Below are positions 3,236 through 59,931 of a DNA stretch of 64,000 bases, piece by piece. Both the position numbers and the translations under genes were made by a program. The DNA lies in assembly GCF_044324785.1 (NCBI RefSeq), contig NZ_CP172127.1. One strand, written 5' to 3'. A model generated the notes under the pieces. It saw only the letters and a program-made list of their open reading frames with translations. It made no database searches and was not told the origin of the DNA. Numbering within the stretch: position 1 is the first letter of the stretch; each line of letters begins with the position of its first letter. This DNA comes from Escherichia coli. Its GTDB lineage: Bacteria; Pseudomonadota; Gammaproteobacteria; Enterobacterales; Enterobacteriaceae.

Positions 3236-5034
3236 GTTACTTTGGCCTTAATCCAGTAAACCAGAATCAGCAGCTTGACGAAGCAGCATCAAATCCAGCT
3301 GGCTTTAACAGCGATGTTGGTTTTTTCGACAATGCTGTAGGAGCGGCATTGTCTGGTTTGTACTCCGGGCTGGTGGCAAAGCCAGATCAGTTGCTATGGG
3401 CAGGGATGGATAAAATCGTATCCCCGATTGCTCAGTTTATTAACGAAAACACCTCGCTCAATGATACTTCAGTTTCATACATTGCCGAGCAGAGAAAACT
3501 AGCAGAGCAGCAGGTTAAGCGGCTGACGCCTGATGCCGCGACAACCGGAACCGCCGGGCAGGTTCTTTATGGGTTGTTCGATATGGGCGGGCAGGCTGTT
3601 GTCGGTACAACGCTCGGTGGTCCTGTCGGAGGTGCAGCGGCGGTAACTTCGCTACAGGGTTTTTCTGAGTTTGAACGGCTGACAGCACAGGGTGTTGATT
3701 TCAGGACGGCGCAGGAAGCGGGATTAGTGCAGGGCATTACTGCTGGTGCCGGAACACTGATCCCTATGAGCCTCGGGTTACGTGCTGGTGGTGCGCTGGC
3801 GGAAGGTGTGGCGGCTCAGCTTGCGCGGGCGGGTGAGAGTTCAGTGCGACGCGCCGCAGCAACAGCAGTACGTGCAACGCCAGATATTGCCTATGCCGCA
3901 GGTACAAATATTGCGTTCGGTATGGCACAGCGTGGGCTTACTGCAAAAACACTTCGTGATGGTGGCTATAGCGAAATGGCTAACCAGTATGATGTGTTGG
4001 ATCGACAGGCAATTGCTATTGATGCTGTTCTTGGGGTGGCGTTTGGTGGTGTCGGCAGATTTATTAACTCTCGCGGCGAGTCTACAAGCGCACCAAATTT
4101 TTCACCAGTTGATGTTGATGCTGCACTGGCGGCGAATGCCGCTCATCATGCTGAAATTGATATTGCGCCCGGCGTGCCGATCAACGTGCTTTCGCGCAAT
4201 TCTCACATTCAGGCTCTGCGAAAAGCTATGTCTGATGTTAGCCAGGGGAGACCTGTAGACGTTGCCAGCATTGTTGAGTCTGCATCTTTCAGTGAAATTC
4301 CTGGGCGCAAGAGTCTGCTGTCTCAGGCAGTTAATGAGGCTCTGTCATCTGTAGATGATGGAGTAACGGCGCGCGCTATAGAAAATCGGTTGCTTGAAGA
4401 ACAGGCCGCGCAGCTTTTGCCGCGTGGCGATAGACAGGTTTACCAGTCTGAAATAGCTAATAGCCAACGAATTATTGAAAATCTCACTGAACAGCGCGCA
4501 CAAATTCTTGCAGAAGAGCCAACCGGTAGCGGTAAATCTTTGTCTCGTGCTCGATCAGATAAACAGGTCAGACTTCGCGATATTGACCAACGAATCCGGC
4601 AGGCACAAGAACGCCTGGAATTTTCCCGTAACGCGTTGGCACCGCATGAGCCTGGCGGTCAGTTTTTTGAAGCTCGAGCAGAACTGGCACGGAGACAGCA
4701 GGCTGAAAGTGAACTTAATGCTCAGGCTGTTTCATTCTATAAAACAGCAGAGGTCAGGACGCCAGACGAAGTAGCTCCTTTTGAGCCTGATAAAATATTG
4801 CAACAGGCAGAACAAAAAATGATGGCGGATCAGGCAGGAGATATTGATCTGCGCATAGCTGAAGACTCGCTGCTTGAATCACCTGACATGATAATCACCG
4901 TGCTGGATGATGATGGTAATCCACAATCGCGCAGCGCGCGTGAAGTACTGGATGAAGCGAACAGGGAAAGTGAGCAGGCAATACAGGATTCCAGCCTGTT
5001 TGATGTCGCTGTGGCGTGTTTCTTGAGAGGTTAA
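3232..5034 (+). CDS. Phage virion/ejection protein, 600 aa, Gly/Ala-rich N-terminal half and charged coiled-coil C-terminal half
   Basis: ORF track; ATGA overlap with upstream stop. Confidence 0.5.
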   Translation: MSYFGLNPVNQNQQLDEAASNPAGFNSDVGFFDNAVGAALSGLYSGLVAKPDQLLWAGMDKIVSPIAQFINENTSLNDTSVSYIAEQRKLAEQQVKRLTPDAATTGTAGQVLYGLFDMGGQAVVGTTLGGPVGGAAAVTSLQGFSEFERLTAQGVDFRTAQEAGLVQGITAGAGTLIPMSLGLRAGGALAEGVAAQLARAGESSVRRAAATAVRATPDIAYAAGTNIAFGMAQRGLTAKTLRDGGYSEMANQYDVLDRQAIAIDAVLGVAFGGVGRFINSRGESTSAPNFSPVDVDAALAANAAHHAEIDIAPGVPINVLSRNSHIQALRKAMSDVSQGRPVDVASIVESASFSEIPGRKSLLSQAVNEALSSVDDGVTARAIENRLLEEQAAQLLPRGDRQVYQSEIANSQRIIENLTEQRAQILAEEPTGSGKSLSRARSDKQVRLRDIDQRIRQAQERLEFSRNALAPHEPGGQFFEARAELARRQQAESELNAQAVSFYKTAEVRTPDEVAPFEPDKILQQAEQKMMADQAGDIDLRIAEDSLLESPDMIITVLDDDGNPQSRSAREVLDEANRESEQAIQDSSLFDVAVACFLRG

Positions 5035-54791: not shown

Positions 54792-55919
54792 TCAGGCGAC
54801 GAGCTGTTCCATGATACGTTGATACATACGGGCAAGTAGCTGCAGGTCGGCAGCGTTCACACATTCATTAATTTTATGAATAGTGGCATTGACCGGCCCG
54901 AGTTCCACCACCTGCGCCCCCATGCGGGCAATAAAGCGCCCGTCGGACGTTCCGCCTGTGGTCAGTAGCTGCGGTTTAATTTCATTATAGTGCTCAACCG
55001 CGTTAACGACCGCATCCACCAGTTTACCGCGCGCGGTCAAAAATGGCTGCCCGGAAAGCCACCAATCCACCGTATAGCGCAGTTGATGTTTTTCAAGCAG
55101 GGCAAGTACCTGCGCTTTGATCATCTCATCAGTTAGTTCGGTGCTGAAGCGGAAGTTAAACTGCACAAACAGTTCACCCGGAATAACGTTGTTACTGCCC
55201 GTTCCCGCCTGAATATTGGCAATCTGCATACTGGTCGCCGGGAAGAATTCATTGCCCTGATCCCACTCAATAGCCACTAATTCATTAAGGAAAGGTGCTG
55301 CGCGATGTACCGGATTGTCAGCCAGATGTGGGTAGGCAACATGCCCCTGCACGCCATGAATGGTAAGGTTGCATGTTAACGATCCGCGACGACCATTTTT
55401 CACCACGTCACCTACCACTTCGATACTCGACGGTTCGCCGACCAGGCAGTAATCGAGACGCTCATTACGCGCCATTAACGCTTCGACGACTTTTACCGTA
55501 CCGTTGTGGGCACTGGCTTCTTCATCAGAGGTGATCAGAAATGCCAGTCGTCCCGTATGGTTGGGATGTTGTGCGACAAAGCGTTCTGCCGCTACCACCA
55601 TCGCTGCCAGCGAGCCTTTCATATCTGCCGCACCGCGCCCGAATAACATACCGTCACGAATGGTCGGTTCAAACGGCGGATTGATCCAACGATCTGCGTC
55701 GCCAGGCGGCACCACGTCGGTATGCCCGGCAAAGGCCAACGTTTCACCCTGCCCACGCCATGCCCAAAAATTCTGCGTATCGGCAAAATCCATGCGTTCA
55801 ACGGTAAAACCGATCGCCTGCAAACGTTCAATCAACAAAGCCTGGCATCCTGCGTCATCAGGACTCAGGGAAGGGCGGCGAATAAGCTGTTGTGTCAGCT
55901 CAATAACCGGGCACGACAT
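54792..55919 (-). CDS. dapE: Succinyl-diaminopimelate desuccinylase, 375 aa
   Basis: M20 peptidase motifs; start [20 protein letters not shown]. Confidence 0.9.
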
Positions 55920-55922
55920 AGA

Positions 55923-56297
<375 letters not shown>

Positions 56298-56659
56298 TTA
56301 TGAGAATAAATACTCATTTAAGGGTGAAAACATTTTGCCTGCAAATGATTATCAGGAAATATAACATTATCGAAGTATTCAAATTAACAACTATTAAATA
56401 ATATTAAACATTTTTAACGTAAACATTAAGAATATTCATCTTGTTATCTGTCTGTATTTTAACCAGAATTAAATCAGTATTAGATACCGTATGAATATCT
56501 CGAAATGGTGCTGTGTATCACATACAAATCATCACCGCAGGACCATAGTATTTACATAAGGTTTGTCCCCCGGAGGTAGTCATCGCAGCAATCGAGTAAA
56601 TTAGCTTCACCACGGTATATTGTTTCCGTAGAATACCCATAATTATAAGAGAGGTTGTT

Positions 56660-56719
56660 ATGATTGAACGTGAACTGGGGAACTGGAAAGACTTTATCGA
56701 AGTTATGCTTCGTAAGTAA
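56660..56719 (+). CDS. ypfM: Small protein YpfM, 19 aa (MIERELGNWKDFIEVMLRK)
   Basis: AGAGAGG RBS then ATG; hand-translated. Confidence 0.6.
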   Translation: MIERELGNWKDFIEVMLRK

Positions 56720-56774
56720 TTCCTGAGACAAAGTACAAACAGCAAGAACCTGCTGAGCAGGTTCTTAATCGGAA

Positions 56775-56812
56775 AGTTGAAAAGGGCGACACATTGGCAT
56801 GTCGCCTTTTTT
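56775..56812. terminator. Bidirectional hairpin terminator between ypfM and acrD
   Basis: aaagggcgacacattggcatgtcgccttttttatt. Confidence 0.6.
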
Positions 56813-56817
56813 ATTGC

Positions 56818-59800
56818 TTATTCCGGGCGCGGCTTCAGCGGGAAGCGGCGGCGCACCAGCACAAAGAACAGCGGCACGAAGTAAATAGCCAGAATAGTGG
56901 CCGAAATCATCCCGCCCATTACGCCAGTACCCACCGCATGCTGACCACCGGAACCGGCACCCGTGCTGGTTGCCATTGGCAATACGCCGAAGATAAATGC
57001 CAGCGAGGTCATCAGAATCGGGCGTAAACGCTGACGGCAGGCGTGGAGCGTCGCTTCAAACAGGTCGTGGCCTTTTTGGTTCATCTCGTTAGCAAACTCG
57101 ACGATCAGGATGGCGTTTTTCGCCGATAAACCAATGACCGTTAACAGGCCCACCTGGAAGTAAACGTCGTTTTCCAGCCCGCGCATCCAGGTTGCCAGCA
57201 GCGCGCCGATAACCCCCAGCGGCACGACCAGCATTACCGAGAACGGCACCGACCAGCTTTCATACAGCGCCGCCAGACACAGGAATACCACCAGCAAGGA
57301 AATGGCGTACAGCGCCGGAGCCTGCGCGCCGGAAAGCCGCTCCTGATACGACATCGCCGTCCACTCCAGACCAAAGCCGTTTGGCAGCTGCTTCACTAAC
57401 GATTCCATAATATCCATCGCCGTACCGGTACTGACCCCCGGTGCGGCTTCCCCTACAATCTCTACCGCAGAATAACCGTTATAGCGTTCCAGACGCGGCG
57501 AGCCTGTCTCCCAGCGTGAGGTCGCGAAAGCAGAGAAGGGCACCATGCCGCCATCTTTATTTCGGACATACCAGAGATTGATGTCATCTGGCAGCATGCG
57601 ATATGGCGCAGCTGCCTGCACATAGACTTTCTTCACGCGACCGCGATCCATAAAGTCATTCACATAGCTCGAACCCCAGGCGGTTTGCAGTGTGTCGTTA
57701 ATATCGTCGATAGCAACGCCCAGCGCCTGAGCTTTACGCTGGTCGATATCAATCTGCAACTGCGGACTGTCGTCGAGGCCGTTATGGCGCACACGGGTTA
57801 GCTCCGGGTTTTCCGCCGCCAGCGCCAGCAACTGGTTACGTGCTGCCATCAGCGCATCGTGACCTGCCCCGGCGTGGTCCTGCAACTCCATATCAAAACC
57901 CGCAGAACTGCCAAGACCGCTAATTGCTGGCGGGCTGCTGGCGATAACGCGAGCTTCTTTAATCTTGTTAAACGCCTTCGTTGCACGCTCGATAATGGCA
58001 AACGAGGTGCCGGTCTTACTGTCGCGTTCGCTCCAGTCTTTCAGGCGGATAAACATTCGCGCCACGTTTTGCCCGTTACCCCCAGGGCCAGAACCAACAG
58101 TGGCAAACACCGACATGATGTTGTCTTTTTCATGGGTGAAGTAGTATTTCTCGATTTGCTCAACGACTTTCAGGGTCTGTTGTTGGGTTGAACCGCTGGG
58201 CAACTGTACCGAGGTAGTAAACATGCCCCGGTCTTCCAGTGGCAAGAACGACGTCGGCAAACGCAGGAACAGGAACACCATGCCGCCAAGCAGCAGGACA
58301 TAAATCACAATCCAGCGCAGGCTACGGTGGAGAATTTTCGCCACCCCTTTTTCGTAGCGTTCGGCGTTGCGGTTAAACATCTGGTTAAACCAGGCAAAAA
58401 AGCCTTTTTGCCCGTGATGCTCACCTTTTTTCAGTGGCTTAAGTAGCGTGGCACACAGAGCCGGAGTGAGGATCATCGCTACCAGTACTGACAGCACCAT
58501 CGCCGCAACAATGGTAATAGAGAACTGGCGATAGATGGCACCGGTGGTGCCGCCGAAGAAGGCCATTGGCACAAATACCGCCGAAAGCACCATCGCAATC
58601 CCGACCAGTGCCCCCTGGATCTGCCCCATCGATTTACGTGTGGCTTCGCGAGGAGTGAGTCCTTCCTCACTCATAATACGTTCGACGTTTTCCACCACCA
58701 CGATGGCGTCATCCACCAGCAGACCGATCGCCAGCACCATCGCGAACATGGTTAAGGTGTTGACGCTGTAACCGAAGGCATAAAGTACGGAGAAGGTTCC
58801 CATCAACACCACCGGCACGGCGATAGTGGGTATCAGCGTGGCGCGGAAGTTTTGCAGGAACAGATACATAACGAGGAAAACCAGAGCGATAGCTTCCAGC
58901 AGCGTTTTCACCACGTCTTCAATGGAGGCTTTAACAAACGAGGTGGTTTCATACGCCACCTTGTATTCCAGTCCATGCGGGAAATACTGCGCCAGCTCGT
59001 CAAGACGATTGAGCACCAGCTCCGCTGTCGCCATTTCGTTCGCGCCGGAGGCCAGTTTTACCCCCAACCCGGAGGCTGGCTTACCATTGAAGCGGCTAAG
59101 ATAATCGTATTTCTCCGCCCCCATTTCGACGGTGGCGACATCGCCCAGCCTTACCTCTGAGCCGTCCTGATTCACCCGCAAGGTGATATCGCGGAACTGT
59201 TCTGGTGTTTGCAGCAGTGACTGGGCGTTAATGGTGGCGTTGAGCGCCTGCTTATCGACGGAAGGCGTACCACCAAGTTGCCCAACCGCAATCTGCGCGT
59301 TCTGTGACTCAATGGCATCAGTGACATCTTTAGCCGTCATCTGGAAACTGTTGAGTTTCGCCGGGTCCAGCCAGATACGCATGGAATATTGCGAACCATA
59401 GGCATCGATATCCCCAACGCCATTCACGCGGCTTAACGGATCCTGAATATTACTGGCAACGTAATCGGCAATATCCTGTTTATCCATCGAACCATCGGTA
59501 GAGACGAAGGCAATGGTCAGAATGTTGGTATCGCCGGTTTTACGCACCGTCACGCCCTGATTTTGCACTGCCTGCGGTAACTTTCGCATGGCAGATTGCA
59601 GCTGGTTTTGTACTTGCTGCACGGCTTCGTCCGGATCGGTGCCTGCTTTAAAACTTAAAGTGACAGATGCCTGACCGGTGCCGCTGCTCTGAGATGACAT
59701 ATACATCAGATTATCGAGACCGGTCATATTTTGCTCGATAACCTGGGTCACGGTGTTTTCCAGCGTCTGGGCCGATGCGCCGGGATAGTTAGCGGTCACT

Positions 59801-59931
59801 CGCACATTCGGTGGCGCGAGATCGGGGTATTGTTCAACGGGCAATGAGAAAATCGCCAGGGTCCCTGTCAGACACAACAGGATTGCCAGCACCCAGGCAA
59901 AAATGGGGCGATCAATAAAGAAATTCGCCAT
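56818..59931 (-). CDS. acrD: RND multidrug efflux pump AcrD, 1037 aa
   Basis: [20 protein letters not shown]-terminus; RND length. Confidence 0.9.

Follow-up and report, generated by a model that had tools for sequence, protein, structure and literature searches.

Does the 19-codon open reading frame between yffB and acrD of Escherichia coli encode a protein that the cell makes and keeps, or is it an incidental string of codons in a small RNA, the reverse image of a gene on the other strand, or a leader peptide or toxin? The question is raised by a short segment (positions 56,660 to 56,812) of a 64,000-nt stretch of contig NZ_CP172127.1 (assembly GCF_044324785.1), referred to below as the window. 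The initial annotation, made from the letters alone, had placed here the gene ypfM with a strong ribosome-binding site and its own terminator. The gene, its SD sequence and its two neighbours are located as follows.

55923..56279, minus strand: yffB, encoding an ArsC-family reductase, the divergent neighbour (ORF listing and RefSeq annotation).
56648..56654, plus strand: SD sequence AGAGAGG, 5 nt 5′ of the ATG.
56660..56719, plus strand: ypfM CDS, 19 codons plus TAA, product MIERELGNWKDFIEVMLRK (annotation, identity with b4606, NF033843, conservation and published MS).
56818..59931, minus strand: acrD, encoding an RND efflux permease, the convergent neighbour (ORF listing and RefSeq annotation).

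Direct reading of the sequence agrees with the original claim that an ATG at 56660, placed after AGAGAGG, opens a 19-codon ORF. It translates as MIERELGNWKDFIEVMLRK and ends with TAA at 56717-19; the GAGGT core of the SD sequence occupies 56651-55 and is separated from the start codon by the 5-nt spacer TTGTT. The proposed gene name is likewise the right one. In E. coli 042, the RefSeq annotation has a CDS, 'ypfM: protein YpfM', at precisely the same position, and the equivalent in K-12 MG1655 is b4606 (YP_001165325.1), located between acrD (b2470) and yffB (b2471) in the same orientation and identical in translation to the window peptide. Over the ypfM region the window and MG1655 agree at 268 of 271 nt and differ at 3, and the locus DNA (541 bases) is present at ≥95% identity in 5425 of 5426 complete E. 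coli genomes. The NCBIfam equivalog model NF033843 (small_YpfM), with a curated cut-off of 33 bits, matches the window peptide, scored with one X appended, at 59.2 bits (E = 2.4e−16, all 19 profile positions aligned); the natural homologues of 20 aa in Pantoea and Yersinia score 49.0 and 32.1 bits, respectively. Membership of YpfM in this family is thus supported by the HMM score, by product identity with b4606 and by conserved position, while no Pfam family was found for the peptide. The ORF was reportedly predicted by Wassarman et al. in 2001, and Hemm et al. are said to have confirmed it in 2008 by chromosomal SPA tagging. Considering both identity and gene architecture, we regard it as highly probable that this is the known gene ypfM, transcribed as a free-standing, monocistronic small mRNA for a 19-residue microprotein. 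In other words, ypfM is a real, ordinary and already known gene, not a new one.

An ORF preceded by an SD sequence is not significant on its own, because, by a simple count, the 64-kb window contains 21 ORFs of 10-30 codons that start with ATG and have an SD core 5-10 nt before it. ypfM is judged real because of its conservation, its annotation and the published detection of its product. It is also absent from an ORF listing with a floor of 20 aa, which illustrates the earlier remark that length filters easily miss this gene. The abundance of such mini-ORFs lends some credit to a different view of the locus, in which the transcript is a purely non-coding Hfq-binding sRNA and the 19 codons are incidental; indeed, the locus entered the catalogues as an sRNA candidate and still constitutes an Rfam sRNA family. 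The evidence that bears on this view comes from comparison among genera and from mass spectrometry.

Conservation was assessed in 80 enterobacterial yffB loci taken from species-representative genomes with the YffB protein as bait. Since the loci were fetched by the neighbouring YffB, the sample does not presuppose ypfM, and the range and context of ypfM described here are those of these 80 yffB-anchored loci only. In 67 of them an ORF of 19 (rarely 20) codons, divergent from yffB, begins with ATG behind an SD sequence of the AAGAGAGG type. Its carriers include Escherichia, Salmonella, Citrobacter, Klebsiella, Enterobacter, Raoultella, Kosakonia, Cedecea and Buttiauxella and, at greater distance, Yersinia, Dickeya, Pantoea, Serratia and one species labelled as Erwinia. 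In the other 13 loci, mainly from Erwinia, with some from Pantoea, Serratia, Yersinia and truncated contigs, the ORF was not found within the 2.5-kb flank of yffB. The SD sequence, too, is retained in 67 of 80 loci: AAGAGAGG or a near variant precedes the ATG in nearly all of the 67, the element is contained in a nearly invariant A-rich leader, ATAAT(A/T)ATAAGAGAGG, and alignment columns A162-G175 of this leader do not vary at all. Besides the leader, which is conserved from the −10 hexamer to the ATG, the conserved parts of the locus are the −35 and −10 hexamers themselves, the ORF and the terminator stem.

The pattern of change within the ORF is that of a protein-coding sequence. The 54 distinct ypfM DNA sequences encode only 25 protein variants, with the consensus M-[IV]-[ED]-x-E-[LMV]-[GNK]-x-W-K-[DES]-F-I-[ED]-x-M-L-R-K. 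Summed variability is 3.44 at third codon positions, compared with 0.88 at first and 1.50 at second positions; synonymous sites vary freely (pS 0.50), and the dN/dS of the ypfM frame, calculated by the Nei-Gojobori method, is 0.10. Judged from these substitution patterns, purifying selection acts on the protein encoded by the ORF across Enterobacterales. A low dN/dS in the presence of saturated synonymous change is at odds with an incidental ORF in a non-coding sRNA, and so is the preservation of start, stop, length and SD sequence from Escherichia to Dickeya, Yersinia, Pantoea and Serratia.

The same comparison bears on two ORFs that overlap ypfM on the opposite strand, at 56518-56745 (minus strand, 75 codons, TTG start) and 56552-56731 (minus strand, 59 codons), either of which might be taken for the real gene. 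In 66 of 68 sequences, the wobble-mirrored antisense frame has no stop codon along the length of ypfM, and its dN/dS is a lowish 0.26, with values of 1.7-2.0 in the remaining four frames. However, 0.26 is what is expected when selection on the sense frame, where the ratio is lower, is mirrored onto the complementary strand. Moreover, the antisense frame has neither a conserved start nor a conserved end, its open length varying between 30 and 99 codons, and its conservation is confined to the stretch that mirrors ypfM and its leader. The promoter, the SD sequence and the polarity of the terminator all belong to the plus strand, as do the Salmonella cDNAs (PMC2515195) and the peptide seen by MS (PMC12529367). 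We consider an antisense gene here scarcely credible and dismissed both ORFs as a mirror effect, an artefact that serves as a useful warning for gene calls based on periodicity.

The protein product itself has been observed. Top-down MS of E. coli YpfM achieved 100% sequence coverage and revealed a formylated initiator Met; the peptide was seen by DIA and PRM as well and, as cited in the same study, had also been detected by Schmidt et al. (PMC12529367). In one PRM series, YpfM was present in all replicates only in low-Mn minimal medium (PMC12529367). Absence of translation had been named in the initial annotation as the observation that would speak against the gene, and the published detection of the full fMet peptide counters it. 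Detection of the whole peptide also refutes the purely non-coding sRNA, which we hold to be very improbable. The locus is thus best read as the small protein-coding gene ypfM, and the signals that govern its transcription are to be sought on both sides of the ORF.

Upstream of ypfM, two sets of conserved signals were recognized.

56503..56550, plus strand: conserved upstream DNA blocks, kept in 15 enterobacterial genera.
56606..56634, plus strand: proximal sigma-70-like promoter TTCACC-17-TAGAAT (promoter scan, RpoD SELEX table and cross-genus conservation).

The proximal promoter is the sole promoter-like site that the scan found in 56200-56900, its start is predicted near 56641, giving a 19-nt leader, and the RpoD genomic SELEX table gives the identical hexamers for ypfM (PMC3946193). 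The blocks further upstream comprise AAATnTTGC (56503-11), an invariant TCACA (56518-22) and CATAGTA (56544-50); a further block, ATCnCAGCAAT, conserved in 15 genera, lies at 56582-56593. A search for RNA structure in the upstream blocks and 5′ leader gave a consensus fold of 0 pairs and a single-sequence z-score of +0.23, upon which a structured 5′ leader was dropped. Because no conserved RNA structure accompanies them, the blocks are probably DNA signals and could represent a distal promoter or a regulator-binding site. Comparison by eye with consensus sequences yielded no sufficiently good fit for CRP, FNR, sigma-54 or sigma-28 sites at these blocks.

The length of the Salmonella transcript provides a further clue to the start. 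A start ~7 nt after CATAGT predicts a Salmonella transcript of ~227 nt, and the proximal promoter one of ~146 nt, while the Northern band of the Salmonella orthologue, STnc250, is ~220 nt (PMC2515195). The start behind CATAGT would fit this band better than the proximal promoter does. Transcription would begin at TTCACC-17-TAGAAT with its 19-nt leader, at the conserved block ~85 nt further upstream, or at both.

These signals lie in, or at the edge of, the AT-rich yffB-ypfM spacer of 380 nt, the GC content of which drops to 19-30% over 56250-56500, as expected from the long AT-rich region noted at the outset. H-NS is marked in this spacer in a genomic-SELEX table (PMC3946193), and a MarA peak designated 'ypfM<>yffB' was reported in a ChIP study of Salmonella (PMC10268841). 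The same AT-rich spacer, at 56280-56500, also houses the divergent yffB-dapE-ypfN promoter. In this divergent direction a mere 3 nt separate the yffB stop from the dapE start (55923 and 55919; minus strand, 54792-56279), and just beyond dapE RefSeq annotates ypfN, a gene for a 66-aa small protein; since ypfN is annotated there, ypfM neighbours an operon that ends in a second small-protein gene. In E. albertii, positions 4266-4346 of the corresponding locus match the Rfam family naRNA4 (RF02564, nucleoid-associated non-coding RNA) at 82.1 bits, ~1.4 kb downstream of the yffB end; this RNA is unrelated to ypfM.

Downstream of the stop codon, the sequence holds the two hairpins that the initial annotation had described, the second of them with a T-tract.

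56744..56766, plus strand: 3′-UTR hairpin 1, 10-bp stem with a TGA loop (folding).
56779..56812, stem folds on both strands: intrinsic terminator, hairpin 2, stem GGCGACA/TGTCGCC with an 8-nt loop, flanked by an A-run and T6.

Hairpin 1, AAGAACCTGC-TGA-GCAGGTTCTT, has a perfect 10-bp stem in the window and a C-A mismatch in K-12. It goes beyond the earlier description in being specific to Escherichia in sequence, and it scores as terminator-like on the minus strand too. A repeated element as its origin was dropped, given that hairpin 1 occurs only once in the window. Loci from Enterobacter, Leclercia and Citrobacter R56 have an unrelated hairpin, GTGTGA...TCACAC, at the same position, so that across genera a hairpin is kept here and its sequence is not.

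The core arms of hairpin 2 lie at 56785-91 and 56800-06, A-T pairs lengthen the stem, and T6 comes after it at 56807-12; the stem amounts to 14 pairs including the A-U extensions, 5 of them GC, and the terminator scan called the hairpin on the plus strand. The scan returned 3 terminator-like sites in 700 nt, compared with 0.4 expected from shuffles, and none of 200 shuffles of the putative transcript 56641-56818 folds as well as the transcript itself (z = −3.6). The terminator has also been maintained in evolution: a hairpin with a T-run follows the ypfM ATG by 110-175 nt in 65 of 68 sequences, an A-run of 4-7 precedes the stem in nearly all loci, and 5 of 7 stem pairs display compensatory changes (GGCGAC/GTCGCC, GGCGGC/GCCGCC, AGCGCC/GGCGCT, GCAGCAA/TTGCTGC and others). 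That ypfM has a terminator of its own is therefore upheld.

Its suggested use in both directions also appears plausible, because the reverse strand folds the same stem, with the tail CUUUUCAACUUUCC, and the flanking A-run and T-run are conserved. The stop codon of acrD (56818-20) is separated by 5 nt from the T-run of the ypfM terminator, and a convergent acrD-like ORF was found within 900 nt in 62 of the 64 sequences examined, the two without it being Dickeya loci. Sharing of the terminator with acrD is thus the rule in Enterobacteriaceae, although it is not required for ypfM. The arrangement in the window is that of known bidirectional terminators between convergent genes, in which a GC-rich stem, bordered by an A-run at one end and by a T-run at the opposite end, lies between the two stops; it differs in the short U-tract on the acrD side (4 U, then CAACUUU) and in being recognized here from sequence alone. 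This tract has 5 U in K-12, where the A-run before the terminator reads AAAAA instead of the AAAAG of the window, and the scan made no minus-strand call for hairpin 2. Hairpin 2 would terminate both the ypfM and the acrD transcripts.

The 3′ part of the transcript leads to its best-studied relative. The Rfam model RF01409, 'STnc250 Hfq binding RNA', which runs from within the last six ypfM codons across the 3′ UTR to the terminator, aligns to 56699-56818 of the window, from GAAGTTATGCTTCGTAAGTAA through the terminator, at 34.9 bits. This is below its gathering score of 42 bits because 13 nt of the model correspond in E. coli to a stretch of 37 nt, hairpin 1. Scores at the orthologous position are 112.9 bits in Salmonella, 81.5 bits in Citrobacter and 43.1 bits in E. 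albertii; the Klebsiella and Enterobacter loci gave no match. The window transcript, which shares its position and terminator with STnc250, is the orthologue of this Salmonella Hfq-bound RNA, a relationship absent from the initial annotation, and the Rfam family models part of an mRNA rather than a separate sRNA gene.

In Salmonella, STnc250 is a stable, growth-phase-dependent transcript that was enriched 4-fold by Hfq coIP (6 vs 24 cDNAs), the recovered cDNAs being confined to a 94-nt 3′ portion that begins in the final codons and ends with the terminator (PMC2515195). It is this portion that the Rfam family represents. In RNA-seq of S. Typhi, it was the most abundant among the mapped Hfq-associated RNAs (PMC2704369). 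These observations raise the possibility that, besides encoding YpfM, the Hfq-bound transcript or its 3′ fragment base-pairs with targets or sponges sRNAs, in the manner of SgrS/SgrT or of sRNAs derived from 3′ UTRs. The 3′ UTR layout of hairpin, linker and U-tailed terminator and the A-rich, nearly invariant leader would suit such a dual role. However, conservation between the ypfM stop and the terminator is only 0-50% across 68 sequences, with no conserved single-stranded stretch. Hairpin 1 differs among genera, RF01409 gives no match at all in Klebsiella and Enterobacter, and the freely varying synonymous sites give no sign of an extra constraint at the RNA level. Sittka et al., who described the RNA, themselves reclassified STnc250, which contains the ypfM ORF, as 'a small mRNA gene', and Hfq binding is common among ordinary mRNAs, 727 of which bound Hfq in their study (PMC2515195). 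A riboregulatory role of the ypfM RNA is disfavoured because the conserved seed it would be expected to have is absent, and a dual-function RNA of this kind seems to us unlikely. Hfq association is most simply understood as regulation of the ypfM mRNA, not as a regulatory function of the RNA itself. The A-rich leader around the SD sequence resembles A-R-N repeats, and Hfq binding would reflect post-transcriptional control of the ypfM mRNA through this leader and the U-tailed terminator.

In its history ypfM resembles yneM/mgtS (STnc570), azuC/IsrB and sgrT in SgrS, microprotein genes that were likewise first found as 'sRNA candidates'. With this class ypfM shares a short transcript that has a promoter and an intrinsic terminator to itself, an origin in sRNA screens or Hfq coIP, a product of <50 aa and detection of that product by MS. 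MgtS and AzuC are membrane-associated proteins whose partners are known, and SgrS is an established base-pairing RNA. In contrast, YpfM lacks a hydrophobic segment and is not known to have a partner, nor is its mRNA known to act as a riboregulator.

What might the peptide do? Of its 19 residues 8 are charged, the net charge is 0 and the mean hydrophobicity is −0.12, so YpfM is no membrane segment. Modelled as a helix, it has a hydrophobic moment of 0.546, which 3% of shuffles attain. On a helical wheel, the near-invariant residues I2, L6, W9, F12, I13, M16 and L17 fall on one face, within 0-160 degrees. This arc holds every hydrophobic residue apart from positions 4 and 15, which vary freely and lie outside it, at 300 and 320 degrees. 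According to this model, a calculation on 19 residues, we infer that YpfM is a neutral amphipathic helix and soluble. The peptide would fold as one amphipathic helix, the invariant hydrophobic face of which would, as the mode of action that fits best, dock onto a larger partner protein, as in other bacterial microproteins, with the variable positions 4 and 15 facing the solvent. Whether YpfM indeed acts by binding a partner through its hydrophobic face is, on the strength of this model, an evenly balanced proposition. The literature searched reports no function or partner for YpfM, K-12 RefSeq names the product 'uncharacterized protein YpfM', and a 2025 review describes it as 'of unknown function'.

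The small size of ypfM, typical of leader peptides and small toxins, invites two further readings, namely, a regulatory leader peptide or upstream ORF that controls a downstream gene, and a type I toxin. A leader peptide would be expected to precede a gene on the same strand, yet downstream of ypfM there is none, only the terminator and then the 3′ end of the convergent acrD; nor does ypfM contain a run of regulatory codons. A toxin is contradicted by the hydrophilic, amphipathic nature of the peptide, with its charged residues and without a membrane-spanning stretch, and no conserved antisense promoter or RNA was found at the locus. Both possibilities are, in our view, highly improbable. A broader alternative is that the ypfM transcript is a dual-function RNA, or that YpfM is a regulatory helix acting on the AcrD pump or on the divergent YffB/DapE operon. 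It is motivated by the Hfq binding, the invariant leader, the two conserved upstream blocks, the terminator shared with acrD and the AT-rich, H-NS-bound spacer, and we regard it as unlikely. The reading we prefer remains that of a monocistronic small mRNA for a microprotein.

Thus, a b-number, a curated HMM and proof by mass spectrometry already exist for ypfM, and its value here is that of a useful positive control, a 19-codon gene recognized from raw sequence below the 20-aa floor of an ORF listing. The comparative test, with 67 of 80 loci, a dN/dS of 0.10 and the mirror-frame control, cleanly separates it from the ~20 chance mini-ORFs with SD and ATG. For the biology of the family, ypfM is of note as encoding a strictly conserved 19-residue peptide of Enterobacterales, predicted to form an amphipathic helix and translated from an Hfq-bound mRNA.
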